Notes under the pieces: model-generated | Told to the model about the DNA's origin: nothing | Seen by the model: the letters and a program-made list of their open reading frames with translations, nothing else | Database searches by the model: none | Shown: positions 17,659 to 58,045 of the stretch, piece by piece | How the letters are laid out: each line of letters begins with the position of its first letter | Position numbering within the stretch: position 1 is the stretch's first letter | Translations under genes and position numbers: made by a program | Assembly: GCA_902787375.1 (NCBI GenBank) | Contig: CADAGD010000004.1 | Span: 28,018 to 92,017, forward strand | Direction of reading: 5' to 3' | Length of the DNA stretch: 64,000 nt | From: an uncultured Eubacteriales bacterium | GTDB lineage: Bacteria > Bacillota > Clostridia > Christensenellales > CAG-138

Positions 17659-17889
17659 ATGGAAAAAGAAAACGAACGCCTCACCCGGACGGTACTGGCG
17701 GGGAAACCCGCCGACCGTCCATGGGAGGGGTGCATAAACTCCGTGGTATACCGCGTACCGAGGGGCGTACCTGTTGAGCTGCCGGAGTTTATTGCGGAGC
17801 ATATAAGAAGGACGGAGGCTGAGCGGGAGCAGGCAGAGAGGAGGGCGGAGCAGTATTCAAAGGCGGCAAGCAGGCTCATGAGGGATTGA
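17659..17889 (+). CDS. hypothetical protein (76 aa), first gene of the SOS-box cassette
   Basis: GGGAGGG RBS. Arg/Glu-rich helical C-terminus. Confidence 0.6.
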   Translation: MEKENERLTRTVLAGKPADRPWEGCINSVVYRVPRGVPVELPEFIAEHIRRTEAEREQAERRAEQYSKAASRLMRD

Positions 17890-17934
17890 CGGGCGCGGGA
17901 GGCGTGACACGCTGAATGTATAAGGAGGATTTTA

Positions 17935-18471
17935 ATGACGCTTAATGACATTATAGTATCGGCGCTTGCCCAGCTTGACAGGGGGCATGACGCGCAGACG
18001 ATGGACACATTCAGGGCAAGGCTTACGGACTTTGCCAATGACGCGCAATCGGATATAGCGCGCGCCATAAGCTTTACAAGGACGGATACCGTTCAGCCTT
18101 CCAATGGAATTGTGGAGCTTACACAGCTTGAAAGGGATTGCATAAAGGTGACAAAGACCATGCAATTAGGTCACGAGGTCAAATTCATGCGCGGGGACAC
18201 GGGAGTTATCGCGCTTCCGTATAACTCATCCGCAGAGATAACATACATATGTGAGCCTAAGCCGCTCGTTGCGTCAACGGATGTCAGCGAGCTTCCGGCA
18301 TATACGCACGGACTTATAGTCAGCTATGTTGTCGGAAGGGAACGAATGTCCGGCGACACATCCACTCAGAGGGGAGCCAACATATACCTTTCAATGTACG
18401 AGGCTGCAAAAAACAAGCTCCGTCCGCACTATGGCGATTCGGAAAGCTACAGGATACAGAACAGGTACTGA
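17935..18471 (+). CDS. phage virion-associated protein-like (178 aa), possible head-tail/tail accessory factor
   Basis: AAGGAGG RBS. Tight spacing with neighbours. Size and position resemble small podovirus adaptor proteins (recall-based, weak). Confidence 0.6.
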   Translation: MTLNDIIVSALAQLDRGHDAQTMDTFRARLTDFANDAQSDIARAISFTRTDTVQPSNGIVELTQLERDCIKVTKTMQLGHEVKFMRGDTGVIALPYNSSAEITYICEPKPLVASTDVSELPAYTHGLIVSYVVGRERMSGDTSTQRGANIYLSMYEAAKNKLRPHYGDSESYRIQNRY

Positions 18472-18480
18472 GGAGAAAAT

Positions 18481-19908
18481 ATGGCAAGCTATACTTACAG
18501 AATCGAGGGCTTTGCCGGCATCGACCAGTCGAGGGACGAGAGCTACATATCCCCGTCATACTCGCCCGATGCGATGAACATGGATACCTCGGACGGCAAT
18601 CTGGCTGTATGCAAGGGCTTTACGAAGCTGCTGCCCGCTCCCGTGCCTGCGGAAAGCACGAGCGGAATAGACTGCGTTTGCTTCTTCAGGGACGCCTCAA
18701 GGGACATCCCGATGGCAATTTCGGGAGGCTATATTTACACATATGATGAAGAGGATGAGGAGTGGACGCAGGCATATGAATACTCCCTCGTGCTTGCCAC
18801 AAGGCATTACTCGGTGCTTATGACTAGGATTGGCACGACGGATACCATGCTGATAGCCGACGGAGCGAATCAAATACTCAAATTTGACGGAACCGACTTT
18901 TCGGCGTTCGGCTCCTCCGAGGGATGCTCCGACATAGCGGTGAGCTGCATCGCCATGTACCGAGGCAGGCTTTTTGCGGCGGGAGATTATCAGAACCCGA
19001 ACAGACTGTATTATTCCAAGCTCCCCGGAGGGGACAGAACAATAGAGGATTGGGGCTATGACGCCGACTCGCCCGCCGTCGAGGGCGGACATGTGGAGAT
19101 AGGAACCACGAGCGGCGATCCGATAACCGCGATATGCGCCATGAGCAATCAGCTTCTCATATTCAAAAAGAACTCGATTTACAGGCTCATAGGCGACAGA
19201 CCGGGCAATTTCACGATTGAGCTGATAGTTAGCGACTCCACGTTTGTCACCGATACCGCAACGGCTGTATACCGCGACGTCATCTACTATGTGACGGAGG
19301 GGGGACTGCATTGCTTCAACGGCGTTGACGCGGCTCCGATGCCGGATGCCCGCCTCATCAAGCGCATAATGGATGGCGCGGACACAAGCGATACCCGCGT
19401 CGCGGTAGTGGGGGACAGGCTCTATTTCACGATCAAGAAGGACGATTATACAAGGCTCATCGAGTATGACCTCAAGACAAGGCATTATATGCAGTACGGA
19501 GGCTTCAAGCTTTACGATATAAACAGCCTTGACGGAAAGCTGATCATCACCACCGACAGCAGGTATCTTGAAAAATGGGGCGAGGGAAACAGCTTCGACG
19601 GTCAGCCCATAGAGGCTTACTGGACTACACCGCTGACCGACCTCGGAGAAAAATCCGCAGTCAAATCCATGCGCGAGCTGTTCCTGCGAGGCAGAGCCGA
19701 TTCGCCGCTCATAGTCGATATGAATGTGGGCGGCAAGCGCGATACATACCGCGTACTGCTTCCCGAAACCCTTGACGACGTGCTTGAGGTTCCGCTTAAA
19801 AATGAGGGGCGAACCATGAATCTCAAAATCAGCAATGAGAACGGCGGCGGGTTCAGCATTGTCGGAGGAATGGAGATAGAGATGAACGTCAGGCGCAGAA
19901 CCCGCTGA
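18481..19908 (+). CDS. phage structural protein-like (475 aa), beta-propeller-like repeats
   Basis: Follows the 178-aa ORF after a 9-nt gap. Recurrent G-x-L-Y/F strand motifs (GRLFAAGD, IYRLIGD, GGLHCFNG, DRLYFTI). Size resembles the P22 gp10-type stabilisation protein (recall-based). Confidence 0.65.
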   Translation: MASYTYRIEGFAGIDQSRDESYISPSYSPDAMNMDTSDGNLAVCKGFTKLLPAPVPAESTSGIDCVCFFRDASRDIPMAISGGYIYTYDEEDEEWTQAYEYSLVLATRHYSVLMTRIGTTDTMLIADGANQILKFDGTDFSAFGSSEGCSDIAVSCIAMYRGRLFAAGDYQNPNRLYYSKLPGGDRTIEDWGYDADSPAVEGGHVEIGTTSGDPITAICAMSNQLLIFKKNSIYRLIGDRPGNFTIELIVSDSTFVTDTATAVYRDVIYYVTEGGLHCFNGVDAAPMPDARLIKRIMDGADTSDTRVAVVGDRLYFTIKKDDYTRLIEYDLKTRHYMQYGGFKLYDINSLDGKLIITTDSRYLEKWGEGNSFDGQPIEAYWTTPLTDLGEKSAVKSMRELFLRGRADSPLIVDMNVGGKRDTYRVLLPETLDDVLEVPLKNEGRTMNLKISNENGGGFSIVGGMEIEMNVRRRTR

Positions 19909-20326
19909 GCCGCATTTTGGAGAAGCGATTAACTCAGTTAAGCTCCAAAGTGATAAATCTGCGACCAAAGGGAGCCACGTGGGCGTGGAGTGTTAAGGAA
20001 TCGCAACGGTGTTGCGATTTTAACGGAACGCCGAAGCTGCTGTGCAGAGAGGGAAGCGTACGCGCCGCACCGAACTTGGTTAAGCAATTACTCAATGCAA
20101 CCCTCAGGGCGAACCCAGTCGCCCGTTATCAACCTTTTTGACCTTTCACCGGATGGTCAAAATCGTGAAACGACCGGTTGATAACCTCCTGCGAGAAATA
20201 TCCGTATAATTATTGAAGAAAGGCATAGCAGAACAGTTGAGATTGATTGAAATCTATACGCTTCTAATTTGGCAGTTGCCAAAAGCGTTAATTGATCATT
20301 GTATACTTTTGAGGAGGTATTGAGCT
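19909..20326 (+). ncRNA. candidate structured non-coding region (class unknown)
   Basis: 418 nt with no convincing ORF and at least five perfect hairpins (see findings). Strand assignment is tentative. Confidence 0.3.
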
Positions 20327-20536
20327 TTGGAAATGCGTTCGCTTTATAATGTCAGTCTTCCCACCGAGAGGGACGACAATGACGACAGGAAGACCCATGA
20401 CGATTGGGTTAAAAAGAACGAAAGCTGTTTGAATATGAATTTCGGTCTTATATCCGATAAGCTCTATGAACTGGAGCTGAGAATGGCTGTGCTTGAAGCC
20501 GCCGTTGAAAATATAGGCTCAAGCGGTTCAAGCTGA
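20327..20536 (+). CDS. hypothetical small protein (69 aa), predicted coiled-coil C-half
   Basis: GAGGAGG RBS 9 nt upstream of a TTG start. Terminator follows. Confidence 0.5.
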   Translation: MEMRSLYNVSLPTERDDNDDRKTHDDWVKKNESCLNMNFGLISDKLYELELRMAVLEAAVENIGSSGSS

Positions 20537-20560
20537 TAACAGGAATATTTGATGCAAAAT

Positions 20561-20610
20561 CGGGACGTCGTGTGGAGCCCTTTAAGCTCATATGCGGCGT
20601 CCCGTTTGTT
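20561..20610 (+). terminator. intrinsic terminator
   Basis: CGGGACGTCG...CGGCGTCCCG stem followed by TTTGTT. Confidence 0.55.
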
Positions 20611-20679
20611 ATGTTTGTTGATTAAATGTCATATAGCATACTGCGACCAAAAAAGACTAAATAAAGTTTGTGATAACTA

Positions 20680-20708
20680 TTGAAAAGAATGGTAAAAAGC
20701 AGTATAAT
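20680..20708 (+). promoter_or_regulatory. orphan near-consensus sigma-A promoter
   Basis: TTGAAA-N17-TATAAT. No SD-preceded ORF in the following 370 nt. Confidence 0.55.
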
Positions 20709-20793
20709 AATAAATGAAAGCTGAACTCTGCCGTATCATTTAAATGATATGGTCAAACCTCTGACAAACCCCAAATGCGCCGGAAATACCTGC

Positions 20794-20942
20794 CTTCCCC
20801 TCACAGGGGAAGGGGGACCGCCGCCTCAGCGGTGGTGGATGAGGTGGCAAAAAACTCAATAAGCACTTAGTTTTTTTGATAACGCCATTGTTTCCACCTC
20901 ATCAGTCAGACTTCGTCTGACAGCTTCCCCTCAAAGGGGAAG
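20794..20942. repeat. inverted pair of about 55-nt hairpin modules
   Basis: CTTCCCCT-CAC-AGGGGAAG + GC hairpin + GATGAGGTGG, then a 46-bp spacer, then CCACCTCATC + GTCAGAC-TTC-GTCTGAC + CTTCCCCT-CAA-AGGGGAAG. Confidence 0.75.
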
Positions 20943-21077
20943 CCAAGAAAAGCAGGCTTTGTCCGTAGTCTGAGCCTGAGTTACCAAAACTCAGGCTTTG
21001 AAATACTTGATGTCTCTCATGCTGCCGTGGTATAATGCTCACAGTAAAGGACGGTTTTACAGCAAAGGAGGAACAAT

Positions 21078-22073
21078 ATGAAAAAAACAAACACGATTAT
21101 AGCATCATCAATACTTGTGGCGGCAATGGCTTTCTCGTCCTGCGTTCCCGCAAAGACGGAGGCTGACGATGTAACTGAATCCATCAATCCAACGGAAGTC
21201 ACCGCCCTTGCATCCCCCGAAACAAACAATACAGAGTCTGCCGATTTGCCTGATTCGACCGAGTGCATTGAGACTTCCGGTGAAAAAGTGCTGCTCATAG
21301 ATAACGGTACTCTTGGAGAAAGTGAGTTTGATTACAGCTATGATATTACCAAGACCATAATTGAAACTGTTGATGAAAGCAAGGTTGGAACCGAAAAGAC
21401 TATTGAGTTTATGGGCAAGCAATATAAGCTGTTATATGAAAGGACTCGCTATGGCGTTTTGCTTAGCATTAAAGTTGATGATTATAAAATAGTAGAAGCT
21501 GAAGGCGAGTATGCCGATGAAATTGGTTATATTGATTTATTGCCCGATGGTACAATTTATTCAATTATAGCAAATCCTATATTCTCGATAGATATTCAGA
21601 GCTGCAAAAGCGGAGAGGACGTTAGGGCTTTAGTTGAAGAAAGCCTGAAGGATGAAATTGATTTCAGCAAATATGAACACTACTCAATAGTCGAGCCGGA
21701 CGAAGAAGCAGCCTTTTACTTCTATTCTATAAGTTGGAATAACAGTATTGACAATATAACGCTGTGTGATTCTGCGGCAGTCATGGTAGATACTGAAGGC
21801 GGTATTAGGGGTATACGCATGAAGGATAGGGTAGATTTTGGCTATGACACACTTCCCGATGATCTGAGCCTTGACGATTATCTCCCTCAGATAGAGAGCA
21901 AGCTAAAGAAAATCTATGGTGACGCATTTGTCGATTATGAGGTCAAATCCTCATTTGTGGGAAACATCGACGGTAATCTCTGCATAATCTGCGATGTTGA
22001 TGCCGACTACAACGATAAGCAAAACGAAAAAACCTATGATCAGATCGAGCTGGCGGTATTCATAAATCAATAA
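21078..22073 (+). CDS. lipoprotein, family A copy 1
   Basis: AAAGGAGG RBS. Signal peptide and lipobox AFSS|C. Paralogous to 23067-24032 along its full length. Confidence 0.8.
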   Translation: MKKTNTIIASSILVAAMAFSSCVPAKTEADDVTESINPTEVTALASPETNNTESADLPDSTECIETSGEKVLLIDNGTLGESEFDYSYDITKTIIETVDESKVGTEKTIEFMGKQYKLLYERTRYGVLLSIKVDDYKIVEAEGEYADEIGYIDLLPDGTIYSIIANPIFSIDIQSCKSGEDVRALVEESLKDEIDFSKYEHYSIVEPDEEAAFYFYSISWNNSIDNITLCDSAAVMVDTEGGIRGIRMKDRVDFGYDTLPDDLSLDDYLPQIESKLKKIYGDAFVDYEVKSSFVGNIDGNLCIICDVDADYNDKQNEKTYDQIELAVFINQ

Positions 22074-22192
22074 AATACACGGCATTAAAGCCTGAATTAT
22101 CAGAAGTTCAGATTTTGAAATACTTGATGTTTCTATGATATAATACTTGTGGGAATCAAAAGATTTACAATAAAAAAAGATGGAGGTGCTTT

Positions 22193-23070
22193 GTGAAACG
22201 TGCAGCCGTAATTCTATTCTGCTTTATTATGCTTTCGTTATTTGGATGTACAGTCAGTCCTAAAACATCCCTTGCTGTACTTGAGGTCAATAAACTGCCG
22301 CTATCCGATTCGGATTTGAGGATCAGCGAGTTGGAGATAAACCAAAACGCGGGTTCGGATTTGATAAGCAGGTCAGCCATGGTATTTGAAACCTCGGCAG
22401 CAGACGTGGATGAAGAATACTTAGATTCATTCAAAAAAAGTATTGGCTTTGGAGAATGTACCATGGCCGATGATGACGAAGCAATGAGTATTACGGACGA
22501 TAAGGGCAATTTCCTTACGGTGTTCAAGGCTTCGGGAACAATAACCTATTACAGCACTCCGGAGGGAGGGGATACACCCGTTGATGAATCCTCTGAGCTG
22601 CTTTCTGATGAAGAATACATGAGAATCGCAAGCGACTGGCTGAGCCATACGGGACTGCTTACGGATGAATACACCGAGAAGGATGCCGTCGTTGCCGACA
22701 ACGGTTTTGTAACAAAGACAGATGATGACGGTACTTCGCAGTTGACGTTACATTGGATGGACGGATAAAGAATGTTGTAAAGATTCAGAGGGAGTATAAA
22801 CCACTTGCGGAATATCCTCTGCAAAGCATAGAGAAAGCAATTCGTAAACTTAAGGACGGAGAGGGCGTGTTCTATGTTTCCGACAATGCAGGACAAAAAG
22901 GTATTATTGAGAATGTGAAGCTGGCATATTATAACACGGATGTTATGGACGATTGCCCGTATCTGCTCCCTGTTTATATATTTGAAGGAACAAGCGAAGG
23001 CTCTCAGTTTACGGCAATGGTCTATGCGCTTGAGGAGGATTGCTATACTGTAACAGGAGGCACAACGTGA
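22193..23070 (+). pseudogene. lipoprotein gene split by a +1 frameshift (ORFs 22193-22768 and 22753-23070)
   Basis: The first ORF has a lipobox (SLFG|C). The second ORF has no SD and only a TTG start. The frames overlap at ACGTTACATTGGATGG, where one extra T would fuse them. Confidence 0.5.
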
Positions 23071-24032
23071 AAAAAACAAATTCAATTTTAGCATCATCAA
23101 TGCTTGCGGCGGCAATAGCTTTCTCGTCCTGCGCTCCGAGTACAGAAAACACACCGGCAGACACTATTGCTCCGAGTGCTTCACAGGGGATTGTGACGAC
23201 AGCTCCCGAAGAAACCGAAAAAAACGCTTCGCTGACGGACGGTCAGGTATTGCTGATAAACAACGGACAATGCGGGGAGTCTGGTATTGAATATGTCTTT
23301 GATTATGAAGATATGATTATGACGGTCGATGAGAACAAGGTGGGAACCGAGAAAACGGTTGAGTTCTTGGGCAAGCAATACGGGCTTGTTTATAATCAGA
23401 CAGTCACATATGTTACTCACAATGCAACGGTTGACGAGTATTGCTTAACCGGGGATATGAAGCTTAACCGTTACGGAAATGAAAACCATATACGTCTATT
23501 GCCCGATGATTCGGTTTTTTCAATCTCATTAGACCCGATATTGAAGATTGATATAGCGGAGAATGAAAGCGTTGAGGATATCCGGGCTGATGTTGAAAAA
23601 GCCCTGCAAAATGAGATAGATTTTGATAAGTTTGAGTTCTGCAATGTTACAGAGCCGAATGAGGAAGCGGGCTACGACTACTATACGTTGACATGGTTCA
23701 ATAAGAAAAATGATATTCCTATGTCTGATACGGTCAGGATATATATGCTGTACGATGGTGATATAACAACCATTTGGATGAATAATAAGGTTGACCTCGG
23801 TCTTAATTCGGTTCGTGGTGATTTCGACATTGAGAGTTATCTGCCGCATATAGAGAAAAAGCTGCGAGAGATTTTCAAGGAAGCCTATGTAAGCTATGAG
23901 ATCAAGTCCTCAATAATCGGAAATATCGACGGTAAACCCTGTATAGTTTGTGACATCAGCACCGTGTATAATGATGGAAATGGTGATGATTTGCACGATC
24001 TGATTGAAATGGCAATATTCATAAACCAATGA
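23067..24032 (+). CDS. lipoprotein, family A copy 2
   Basis: GTG start at 23067 (VKKTNSILASS...), lipobox AFSS|C; paralog of 21078-22073. Confidence 0.8.
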   Translation: MKKTNSILASSMLAAAIAFSSCAPSTENTPADTIAPSASQGIVTTAPEETEKNASLTDGQVLLINNGQCGESGIEYVFDYEDMIMTVDENKVGTEKTVEFLGKQYGLVYNQTVTYVTHNATVDEYCLTGDMKLNRYGNENHIRLLPDDSVFSISLDPILKIDIAENESVEDIRADVEKALQNEIDFDKFEFCNVTEPNEEAGYDYYTLTWFNKKNDIPMSDTVRIYMLYDGDITTIWMNNKVDLGLNSVRGDFDIESYLPHIEKKLREIFKEAYVSYEIKSSIIGNIDGKPCIVCDISTVYNDGNGDDLHDLIEMAIFINQ

Positions 24033-24048
24033 AACACACGGCATTAAA

Positions 24049-24078
24049 GCCTGAGTTGTCAAAAGCTCAGGCTTTTAC
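24049..24078 (+). terminator. intrinsic terminator
   Basis: AGCCTGAG-N10-CTCAGGCT followed by TTTT. Confidence 0.75.
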
Positions 24079-24362
24079 AGTGCCGGAGTCATTCCGTTTT
24101 AAAGCGAAATAATAACCCGGTTCTTCAATATTATATGCTCTTTTACAAAAAAAGCCCTTTTCGGTGAAATATACAATAAATTGTAGCAATTCGTTATGGA
24201 ATAAATATGCTTAATGTGTTATACTTTATGTTGGTTGATGATAGGGAAAATCTGCCTGTGGCTGAAAAGAGGCGTAACGCCTTTAAAAAGCGGGCGGATA
24301 TGCCCTTGAATCGACTTAAACCCACTAATTTTTCCGCTAAAAGCGGTACAAGGAGGACTGTC

Positions 24363-46858: not shown

Positions 46859-46916
46859 TGTAAACATGGTATTAGGTAGTGATTAACTCAGCAAAGCTCT
46901 GAGAGTGCTGAGGAGT

Positions 46917-48393: not shown

Positions 48394-49149
48394 TTATATC
48401 TTACGTCTTACGACGTGATGCGCTACGGTGCCTTCAACGCAGAATTGGCGTGAATACATTATGGGCTTTCCGTCAAAATCGTAATCGACTTCATCCAGTT
48501 GGAGTAACGGAGTTCCGTCGGGAACGGAAAGACTCTTTGCGATATTACCCGACGCGCTGACAGCGTGCACCTCACGCACGTCAGTACACGGCTCAAGCCC
48601 GCAGAATACGCCGAGAAAGTGGCGTATCGGCTTTTCGAGATCGGCGTCCGTATATCCGCCGCGCCGTATGAGCCGCTTGGGGATATGCTCCTCACAGTAG
48701 ACGGCGGGCTTGCCGTTCGCCGTTATGATGCGCGAAACGTAGAGAAGCTCGTCCAGTCTGCCGGTTCCCATCTTTTCGGACGCCTGAGCCGAGCGCAGTA
48801 TGCCCGACCTGATGAGAAGCATTTTCGGCTCTCGTCCGGATTTTTGTATCATATCCTCATAGCCCATGTCGATGTCCATTCGCGTCGAAAGATAAAGCAC
48901 ATGGCGATTTATAATCGTGCCAACCCCTTGGCGGCGGCTTATGACTCCATCATGATACAGCTCGGCAAGCGTGTCGCGCAGTTGAGTGCGGCTTATATTA
49001 AGCGCCTTAGCAAGAAGCGATTCGCATGGAAGCTTGGCGGCGTTCTTATAACACCCGAAGCGCATTTCATACAAAAGCCGCTCCTGAATGCTTTGTACAT
49101 TGGGAGCCGCAGTTGCTTCTATATTAAGGTTTTTATCAAGCTCGTCCAA
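48394..49149 (-). CDS. GntR/HutC-family transcriptional regulator (wHTH plus UTRA domain)
   Basis: [42 protein letters not shown] followed by a UTRA-like C-domain. TTG start. Confidence 0.85.
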
Positions 49150-49290
49150 TTCGCCTCCGGAGGGCTGCGCCGCTCAATGCGTATTATTAATACAATGGTA
49201 ATACCTTTCATAAGGATACCACTTTCGACGGATTATGTAAAGAGAAAACCGAAAAATATATTAAATTCCACTCAAGACATATGCAGATAA

Positions 49291-49382
49291 CGATTAACTA
49301 ACATCGTTTCTTAACACTACACGCCCACACGGCTCTCTTTGGTCGCAAATTCAACACCCTCATTGCGTTGCTGAGTTAATCG
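49291..49382. repeat. 92-bp element bounded by perfect 9-bp inverted repeats (CGATTAACT / AGTTAATCG)
   Basis: Located 18 nt downstream of the rsmA stop. Its core matches 19960-19998 at about 34/39 by eye (in reverse orientation). Confidence 0.65.
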
Positions 49383-49400
49383 GCGTTTACCTATATCACG

Positions 49401-55332: not shown

Positions 55333-56264
55333 TGAGGGATATCTATTCAATGGAATACCCAAATCACCTGAGAAAAAAGCGGCTTGTCAGGGTACTTTTG
55401 GGAGTGCTTGCGGCAATGCTCCTTTTCTGTGCTTTGGGTTGTTTTGAAATAAAAAACGATGACCAAATGAGCGCATCAATTCCAACACAGCAGCTTACCG
55501 AACAACCGATGCCGGAGCCGACAGAGCAACCGACACAGGAACCGACGCAGGAGCCGACTTTGCAGCCACCGGAGGAGCAGTTCAGATATGAGGATGTTCT
55601 GAGTTTTAAAAAAGCTCCGGTAATAGCGGATACATATTTTACAAACCGCTTAAAATTGGCTTATGAAGCGTTTTCGAAAAAGACTGCTTTTGTTGTTGCA
55701 AAGGTGCTTTCGATTAAATCCTATTATGGCTGGGAGAAGGACTGCAGCGTGTACGGGTGGATGACCGTCGAGGCACTTGTTCTTGAGGTGAAGGATGAGT
55801 TCAATTCCGCCGGAGTTAAGCCCGGAGATGTATTGATGCTGAGAGAGGATTCAAAGATTTGCTTTGAAAAAGCAGAGGATAGATATGCCTTTTTCTCTGA
55901 ACACCATAATACGACAATAGCGAACTATGAAGAGTTTGAGGCACTTACGAATGAGGTTGGGGGCTTTTTCCAAGTGCTGCCGAAGGAAGGTATTGATTAT
56001 AGGCTTTCACTTTGGCCTGATGAATATCCGCTGATAGTTGGCGAAAGGTATGCAATGTTCTGTTGTATGAGTGATGAAACGACGGAATACGGAATGCCGC
56101 AAAGCTTCCTGTTTTATGTATATCCAATGGACAGATGGATCGACCTTGAGGGGCTTGTAAGGGATTATGAATTTGAAATTTGCGATGAATACATAACCGT
56201 ATCCGAACAGCTTGCCGCCTTGTTCAGACATACCGAACACATTGGGGAGAGCATGATAAAATAG
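55332..56264 (+). CDS. lipoprotein, family B copy 1 (Pro/Thr/Glu/Gln linker)
   Basis: Lipobox-like CALG|C and EQPTQEPTQEPT linker. The body is near-identical in long stretches to copy 3. Confidence 0.75.
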   Translation: MRDIYSMEYPNHLRKKRLVRVLLGVLAAMLLFCALGCFEIKNDDQMSASIPTQQLTEQPMPEPTEQPTQEPTQEPTLQPPEEQFRYEDVLSFKKAPVIADTYFTNRLKLAYEAFSKKTAFVVAKVLSIKSYYGWEKDCSVYGWMTVEALVLEVKDEFNSAGVKPGDVLMLREDSKICFEKAEDRYAFFSEHHNTTIANYEEFEALTNEVGGFFQVLPKEGIDYRLSLWPDEYPLIVGERYAMFCCMSDETTEYGMPQSFLFYVYPMDRWIDLEGLVRDYEFEICDEYITVSEQLAALFRHTEHIGESMIK

Positions 56265-57169: not shown

Positions 57170-58045
57170 GTGAGAAGGCTTTTGTTGTTGCTTGCGGCGA
57201 TGGCTCTTGCCGTTTCGGGCTGCGTAAACCGTGAAACAAACGATAATAAAAACGCCGCGATTCCAACACAGCAGCTTACCGAGCAACCGACGCCGGAGCC
57301 GACAGAGCAACCGACACAGGAACCGACGCAGGAGCCGACTTTGCAGCCACCGGAGGAGCAGTTCAAATATGAGGATGTCATTAATATTAAAAACAAGGTT
57401 CCTAGGATAGTTGATGGTATAGAACCTTATAGTTTGAAAGATGCTTATGGGTTCTCTCCGTCTATCGCTTTTGTTGTCGCAAGAGTACTCTCAATTAAAT
57501 ATTATTTTGGTTGGGAAGAAGATGATTTTTTTGACGGATGGACTACAGTTGAGGCACTTGTTCTTGAGGTGAAGGATGAGTTCAATTCCGCCGGAGTTAA
57601 GCCCGGAGATGTATTGATGCTGAGAGAGGATTCAAATATTTGTTTTGAAAAAAAAGAGGATAGAAATGACTTTTTCTCCGAACACCATAATACGACAATA
57701 GCGAGCAATGAAGAACTTGAGGCACTTATGCACAATGAGTATGGCTTTTTCCAAGTGCTGCCGAAGGAAGGGGTTGATTATATACTTTCACTTTGGCCTG
57801 ATGAATATCCGCTGATAGTTGGCGAAAGGTATGCAATGTTCTGTTGTATGAGTGATGAAACGACGGAATACGGAATGCCGGGAAGTTTACTGTTCAATGT
57901 ATATCCAATGGACAGATGGATCGACCTTGAGGGGCTTGTAAGTAACTATGGATTTGATCTTTGCGATGAATACATAACCGTATCCAAGCAGCTTGCCGCC
58001 TTGTTCAGACATACCGAACACATTGGGGAGAGCATGATAAAATAA
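57170..58045 (+). CDS. lipoprotein, family B copy 3 (mosaic of copies 1 and 2)
   Basis: GTG start with GGAG RBS, lipobox AVSG|C. The linker, body and 3' end match copy 1. Confidence 0.75.
   Translation: MRRLLLLLAAMALAVSGCVNRETNDNKNAAIPTQQLTEQPTPEPTEQPTQEPTQEPTLQPPEEQFKYEDVINIKNKVPRIVDGIEPYSLKDAYGFSPSIAFVVARVLSIKYYFGWEEDDFFDGWTTVEALVLEVKDEFNSAGVKPGDVLMLREDSNICFEKKEDRNDFFSEHHNTTIASNEELEALMHNEYGFFQVLPKEGVDYILSLWPDEYPLIVGERYAMFCCMSDETTEYGMPGSLLFNVYPMDRWIDLEGLVSNYGFDLCDEYITVSKQLAALFRHTEHIGESMIK

Follow-up and report, generated by a model that had tools for sequence, protein, structure and literature searches.

A probable internally deleted copy of a structured, non-coding intergenic insertion element between rsmA and a GntR regulator gene in an uncultured Eubacteriales bacterium

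Pneumococcal BOX elements and the enterobacterial BIME and ERIC sequences are short, non-coding, modular intergenic repeats with stable predicted folds, which occur in tens to hundreds of copies per genome, are usually co-oriented and co-transcribed with the neighboring genes and are suspected to be mobilized in trans. MITEs, such as the Correia/NEMIS elements of Neisseria, are non-autonomous, with inverted-repeat termini, and undergo internal deletions that keep the ends. Other mobile elements carry structured non-coding RNA scaffolds, including the omega-RNA/HEARO of IscB, the reRNA of TnpB and the bridge RNA of IS110. Here, we describe a family of intergenic elements represented by several copies in the window, that is, the whole 64,000-nt stretch of DNA that was analyzed. 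The copy located downstream of rsmA (copy A) is, in our assessment, probably a decayed, internally deleted derivative of a ~390-nt non-coding insertion element that has spread to several intergenic sites of this Clostridia lineage, and the family is a previously undescribed variant of the structured intergenic repeat/MITE kind.

In the preliminary description, A was delimited as a 92-bp unit (49291-49382, minus strand) enclosed by a perfect 9-bp inverted repeat, CGATTAACT at 49291-49299 and AGTTAATCG at 49374-49382, with a related sequence, copy B, at 19925-19998 on the plus strand. Of the four items in that description, three exceed chance expectation. The repeat is present: the window contains 57 perfect inverted pairs of 9-mers with loops of 3-100 nt, compared with ~21 in shuffled sequences, so that the repeat of A is unremarkable by itself. 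The reported recurrence of the core near 19925, after a similar spacing, was borne out by blastn within the window, with 34 of the 38 positions identical to 19960-19997 (E=6e-7) and 77.6% identity between A and B over a single 76-nt HSP (E=2.5e-8); in A and B alike, the core is preceded, at a distance of 22-23 nt, by the 12-mer CGATTAACTCAG. The similarity of A to the rest of the family begins 8 nt outside the 92-bp limits, at GTAAACGC (49390), and in alignments with copies C, F and G runs from there, through the box and a less conserved stretch, to GTGTTAAGAAA. The alignment with C, spanning 67 nt, scores 57, compared with 13.9 +/- 2.2 in shuffles. The other end of the homology is probably at 49283, which gives the following parts:

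49283..49390, minus strand: copy A, internally deleted, ~108 nt (limits from alignments with copies C, F and G)
49348..49390, minus strand: 5' arm of A, consisting of GTAAACGC, the box CGATTAACTCAG and a 23-nt less conserved stretch (multiple alignment)
49306..49347, minus strand: central-domain fragment of A, consisting of the 38-nt core TGCGACC...GTGTTAAG plus AAAC (core match to 19960-19997)
49283..49305, minus strand: probable 3' terminal remnant of A, GATGTTAGTTAATCGTTATCTGC (match to the 3' terminus of copy F)

The remnant includes the right-hand 9-bp inverted repeat, and the last ~20 nt of A (GTTAGTTAATCGTTATCTGC) agree with the 3' end of copy F in 15 of the 18 positions aligned, a local alignment score that was equalled in 19-21 of 2,000 dinucleotide shuffles (p ~0.01, moderately significant). 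The 3' part of A and the 3' arm of B gave no significant local alignment, significance (p ~0.01) being limited to the comparison with F and G. Rather than a 92-bp unit, A appears to be a ~108-nt derivative of the longer element, in which the 5' arm and the initial ~45 nt of the central domain are joined to a probable 3' terminal repeat.

Copy B had been viewed as a phage-adjacent structured region merely sharing the core with A; instead, it is the full-length element, located between two genes that are adjacent in relatives:

19918..20306, plus strand: copy B, full-length, 389 nt (end-to-end alignment with copies F and G)
19958..20218, plus strand: central structured domain of B, ~255 nt (covariation and a 300-bit covariance-model score)

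B sits between a gene encoding a 475-aa protein (stop at 19908) and a 69-aa ORF (start at 20327), the latter positioned 418 nt after the 475-aa gene; with the limits first given, B starts 17 nt past the 475-aa stop. In relatives, a 62-64-aa homolog of the 69-aa ORF comes only 17-20 nt after the homolog of the 475-aa gene (61-74% identity), and B is therefore an insertion that splits an operon junction. No promoter was predicted between B and the small ORF, so that B must be co-transcribed with the operon; a promoter inside B (TTGATA...TATAAT) was considered and dropped, given its 21-nt spacer and the failure of the promoter scan to call the pair. Once translated, the reading frames that cross the element show no conservation between the copy in the window and that on contig L036. 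The 475-aa gene shows weak similarity to phage structural proteins and is preceded by an SU10-adaptor-like gene. The two belong to a four-gene cluster (window 17659-20536) encoding proteins of 73-76 aa, 178 aa (SU10-adaptor-like), 475 aa (virion-structural-like) and 62-69 aa, which is kept at 45-76% identity in many Clostridia MAGs (L037-L041), in ordinary chromosomal neighborhoods without other phage genes, and which has the appearance of a domesticated phage module, not of a prophage. Directly 3' of the 69-aa ORF, the gene content varies between conspecific strains (window 20537-24100; L019-L028), the alternatives being a 331-aa lipoprotein, a 758-aa CBM96/Flg_new protein, a 610-aa metallophosphatase or a 230-aa protein; paralogous lipoprotein genes lie in the window at 21078-22073 and 23040-24032.

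Alignment of B, F and G defines the layout of the ~390-nt element, in which a 5' arm starting with GTAAAYGCYGATTAAMTCAG is followed by the central domain of ~255 nt and by a 3' arm ending with GCGTTAATTRATCATYGYMTAC; the ends can be written as the pattern GTAAAYGCYGATTAA...TTAATYRATCA...TAC. The termini are imperfect inverted repeats centered on GATTAA/TTAATC, a motif pair found at both ends of A (9/9), B, F and G. In F, about 13 of 20 terminal positions are matched (GTAaAtgcTGATTAA and GTAgAcaaTGATTAA), and the 9-bp repeat of A would, on this alignment, be the core of the terminal repeats of the family. The arms of B are 43-72% identical to those of F and G, compared with 95-97% over the central 244 columns, and across the full-length copies the central domain is conserved at 95-99%. 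No target-site duplication consistent in length or sequence was found at A, B, F or G, the flanks being ATATAG / ATATG at A and TTTT / TTTT at B. Neither the window nor any of the loci retrieved contains a transposase or an autonomous partner with the same termini.

The predicted fold of the central domain combines several hairpins with a three-way junction and, at long range, a closing helix. The domains of the window copy and of L036 align throughout, and RNAalifold yields 61 pairs, 14 of which show compensatory double changes. The fold derived from five sequences comprises 79 pairs, with changes on both sides in 17, compared with 3.8 +/- 1.7 in column shuffles and 1-3 when the partners were slid. 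Support is strongest for the AATCGCAAC/GTTGCGATT hairpin, for another hairpin, in which a U-A pair flips to A-U within the species, and for the three-way junction; the closing helix is predicted to form between CGYGGG in the core and CCUGCG near the 3' end. Because of the numerous G-U pairs, the fold was assigned to the strand that is sense to the upstream genes. Covariation among the copies, which the preliminary description had proposed to examine, is thus evident in the full-length domain, whereas A contains none of the covariation-supported helices. The whole-domain covariance model assigns A only 10.7-12.6 bits (10.7 bits corresponding to E of 0.3), and the fold energy of A is no better than that of shuffled sequences (z = -0.5 for the 92 nt and +0.3 with flanks). 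Searches against Rfam, at gathering as well as permissive thresholds, returned no relevant match on A, B, E, F or G, even at E up to 10, and the covariance model identified no further copies of the central domain in the 163 kb searched. Given its better conservation than the ends, the compensatory changes between two species and the lack of an Rfam match, the central domain is a candidate new structured RNA linked to mobile DNA in uncultured rumen Clostridia.

The element is not confined to the loci of A and B: further copies (C, F, G and, in another species, E) were found, and the family occupies at least seven insertion sites or contexts, with presence/absence differences between strains and deletion derivatives. 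A truncated copy (D) and a second, palindromic repeat family (P), into which the element has inserted, were also delineated:

46875..46913, plus strand: copy D, truncated 5'-arm fragment GGTAGTGATTAACTCAGCAAAGCTCTGAGAGTGCTGAGG, abutting the guaB stop codon and antisense to guaB
20767-20973 of the window, downstream of the 69-aa ORF: repeat P, also at 2541-2765 of L019 and at ~3440-3600 of L022/L023

Copy D corresponds to the fragment previously seen at 46881, which is real and longer than reported; its alignments with A (26/31), B and C span 22-31 nt, with scores reached by none of 1,000 shuffles. By contrast, the fragment proposed at 20641 is a chance-level 11-mer (E ~2) that does not extend. 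Self-comparison of the window also showed a tandem duplicated gene pair (57260-58044 and 55479-56263, 86% over ~790 nt).

Strain polymorphism is directly visible at the B locus, where strain contigs present B as a mosaic of three types: the short S-type, which stops at CCAAAGGGA; the W-type, which is the window form; and the L-type, with the 207-bp palindromic repeat P inserted exactly after GTGTTAAG (L019, L014). Repeat P, ~207 bp in length, is one long imperfect palindrome, AAACCCCAAATGCGCCGGAAATACCTGCC...GTCCGTAGTCTG. The L022/L023 strains have a second copy, C, which lies within P and is lacking at that place in L020/L025. Entire blocks, sharply bounded, distinguish the S, W, L and C types. 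Copy E, which is diverged, lies downstream of guaB in another, related species (L035/L036). Copies F (L042) and G (L043) were found by searching a spurious ORF across B against 1.84 billion protein representatives, which returned spurious ORFs called over further copies, two of which were retrieved; both are full-length and have new flanks, on short contigs whose attribution to the same species is uncertain. The 5' end of G provides the upstream gene with its last codons and stop: at L043 1-106, as at L042 1-135, the upstream ORF ends ...VNAD* on the first bases of the element (GTA AAT GCT GAT TAA), and thus the element can replace the last codons and stop of a neighboring gene. The clusters of spurious ORFs occur on contigs of 500-850 nt and at the ends of MAG contigs, and several contigs break inside or beside B. 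These contig breaks and orphan short contigs behave as collapsed repeats do, and the element accounts for the assembly breaks at these loci in these organisms.

A itself is a minus-strand feature, with the rsmA stop (49401) on one side and the promoter of a GntR/UTRA regulator gene (48394-49149) on the other; this gene is followed by guaB and then by a penicillin-binding protein gene. A starts 10-18 nt past the rsmA stop, on the coding strand, and the conserved GntR -35 box is located 42 nt downstream. All 10 strain contigs of the same species that were examined contain A, with three SNPs and an SNP density not clearly below that of the flank; being fixed in all 10, A has no empty site within the species. 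The nearest other relatives, with GntR proteins 58-60% identical, retain the rsmF-rsmA-GntR-guaB synteny, and we compared five of their orthologous spacers, representing three distinct sequence types. The rsmA-GntR spacer is 103-149 nt in these relatives, compared with 251 nt here, and aligns to the promoter-proximal part only (TTTACA, the -10 box and the GGTAATACC palindrome). A therefore has no counterpart in any of the five orthologous spacers, and copies A and B alike are lineage-specific insertions. The region upstream of GntR-guaB that is kept in relatives (49197-49241, minus strand) contains the TTTACA -35 box (49241-49236), a -10 box with TG extension and, at 49197-49205, the GGTAATACC palindrome, which is probably the autoregulatory operator of the GntR/UTRA regulator.

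Neither DNA patterns nor protein searches matched it in IMG/VR, phage and plasmid BLAST found no match, and pattern scans of the JGI metagenomes were also negative. Three pattern matches in the GTDB representative genomes, to Proteobacteria and Acidobacteria, were all due to chance, with no similarity outside the pattern, and a protein-word search with the spurious ORF over B yielded no useful match. By exact-pattern scans, the species is not represented among the GTDB representatives, the JGI metagenomes or IMG/VR.

The strong conservation of the central domain might reflect a role in the host rather than selfish spread. The copies would then be paralogous host ncRNA genes ('sibling' RNAs), spread by duplication and recombination, and A would be a pseudogene. 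The 95-99% conservation of the domain next to diverging arms would be expected of such genes, as would the strong compensatory changes and strand-specific G-U pairs; copies A, B, E and G are, moreover, co-oriented downstream of a gene on its sense strand and so would be transcribed, and the variants share sharp mosaic breakpoints at conserved motifs. We nevertheless consider this explanation unlikely, in view of the inverted-repeat termini, the insertions into an operon junction and within repeat P, the copy that supplies a gene's stop codon, and the S-, L- and C-type variants that lack large parts of the domain within one species, all without a predicted stand-alone gene promoter or terminator. 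The same domain might instead represent a new functional RNA class needed for the spread of the element itself, acting either as a catalytic RNA or as the guide or scaffold of a recombinase or nuclease whose gene lies elsewhere. We rate this as quite unlikely; if true, the arms would be only a delivery frame, the family would be an undescribed RNA-centered mobile element and A would be a dead copy.

Two further possibilities concern A more directly. Its position just past the rsmA stop on the coding strand, its fixation in the 10 strain contigs and a hairpin polymorphism in L008, A to G, which still pairs as G-U on the coding strand, would suit a functional cis-acting RNA or DNA signal, either a terminator or stabilizer of the rsmA transcript or a regulatory site of GntR-guaB. 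However, the orthologous spacers of all relatives have the promoter and the GGTAATACC palindrome without A, A folds no better than shuffled sequences do, its coding strand has no predicted terminator-like site, and the SNP density gives no clear sign of constraint relative to the flank, so that such a role appears very unlikely. Likewise, the earlier proposal of a protein-binding site or discrete sRNA found no support, A being absent from the orthologous spacer of relatives and lacking the covarying helices. The inverted orientation of A and B, ~29 kb apart, and a junction exactly after GTGTTAAG in other strains might suggest recombination sites, namely, phage attL/attR, integron attC-like sites or the ends of a 29-kb composite (19926-49382). 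This reading is extremely improbable: the rsmA-GntR-guaB-PBP synteny is kept across the position of A in relatives without A, the junction after GTGTTAAG (GTTAAG) marks where repeat P has inserted, not a crossover, neither GATTAAC nor GTTAAGG agrees with RYYYAAC/GTTRRRY, an integrase was not seen near either copy, and the phage-like genes form a conserved chromosomal cluster.

Several additional candidates were rejected. The conserved synteny across A excludes a 29-kb composite transposon or an invertible segment bounded by A and B. The differences between A and B are not adenine-specific, as would be required of the template and variable repeats of a diversity-generating retroelement, and all five of those in the open frame alter the amino acid, against a small peptide. 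The GAGCCGU of group II intron domain V is present, without a complementary 3' strand. A purine riboswitch of guaB was dismissed because relatives lack A and because A precedes the promoter, and a riboswitch or leader of GntR-guaB because A is not conserved upstream of the orthologous operon (five spacers).

The explanation that we favor, a decayed insertion, would involve the entry of the element, presumably by transposition, into the rsmA-GntR spacer in this lineage, followed by a deletion that ran from position ~45 of the central domain up to the last ~22 nt, with both ends kept. The remainder would be unable to form any conserved helix and, lacking the supported helices, is most likely inert, a relic within the 3' region of rsmA that travels passively at the 3' end of the rsmA transcript and precedes the conserved promoter and operator of GntR. 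A, the 'phage-adjacent structured region' and the guaB-side fragment are, under this explanation, the deleted, full-length and truncated states of one element. The link between housekeeping 3'-UTRs and a phage-like locus that had been drawn from these occurrences amounts to different insertion sites, and the three states do not connect housekeeping genes with a prophage.

Compared with known systems, the element differs from integron attC sites, which have RYYYAAC/GTTRRRY core sites and a crossover at G|TT, and from phage att sites, which are direct repeats on either side of an integrated element with an integrase; it is set apart by the misfit of the core sites, the inverted arrangement of A and B, and the synteny running across A. 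The PATE elements derived from IS200/IS605 lack terminal repeats, have subterminal hairpins and insert 3' of a fixed target of 4-5 nt; here, terminal repeats are present, and the left flanks (ATAG, TTAG, AATA, TTTT and TCAA) show no fixed motif. ISDge4, a member of the IS66 family (ISBst12 group), has the TIRs GTGACTACTCAGCA / GTAACTGCTCAGCA and an 8-bp direct repeat (PMC12898284). The element described here likewise starts with GTAA, and its box GATTAACTCAGCA resembles the ISDge4 repeat GTAACTGCTCAGCA (PMC12898284); however, the likeness covers only ~12 bases, with no 8-bp duplication and no IS66-type transposase found, and is a lead only.

The non-coding RNA scaffolds of mobile elements provide a parallel for the central domain, in that a conserved structured RNA domain of 150-300 nt shows covariation and is present in multiple copies. 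Unlike in the IscB, TnpB and IS110 systems, no iscB, tnpB or IS110 gene was seen beside any copy, there is no Rfam match, HEARO included, and no guide-like segment varying with the flank was identified.

The family resembles MITEs in its small size without coding capacity (A ~108 nt, B 389 nt), inverted-repeat termini, end-keeping deletions, insertion at gene ends and presence/absence among strains, with copies in unrelated flanks and both filled and empty sites (A, B, C, D, F and G, with E in another species). The original proposal of a small dispersed MITE-like repeat family accordingly holds with respect to the number of sites, the inverted termini, the deletions and the strain polymorphism; no consistent target-site duplication was found at the four copies compared (A, B, F and G). 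The family departs from MITEs in the imperfection of its terminal repeats (~13/20 in F, and 9/9 only in A) and in an interior that is more conserved than the ends, the reverse of the typical pattern.

Finally, like BOX, BIME and ERIC, the element is intergenic and non-coding, consists of modules that are present or absent in individual copies, and has a predicted stable fold; most copies share the orientation of the neighboring gene, with which they would be transcribed, and mobilization in trans may apply here as well. There is no sequence similarity to these repeats, and the ~255-nt multi-helix module, with its three-way junction and compensatory changes, is far more elaborate than the hairpins of BOX, REP and ERIC.
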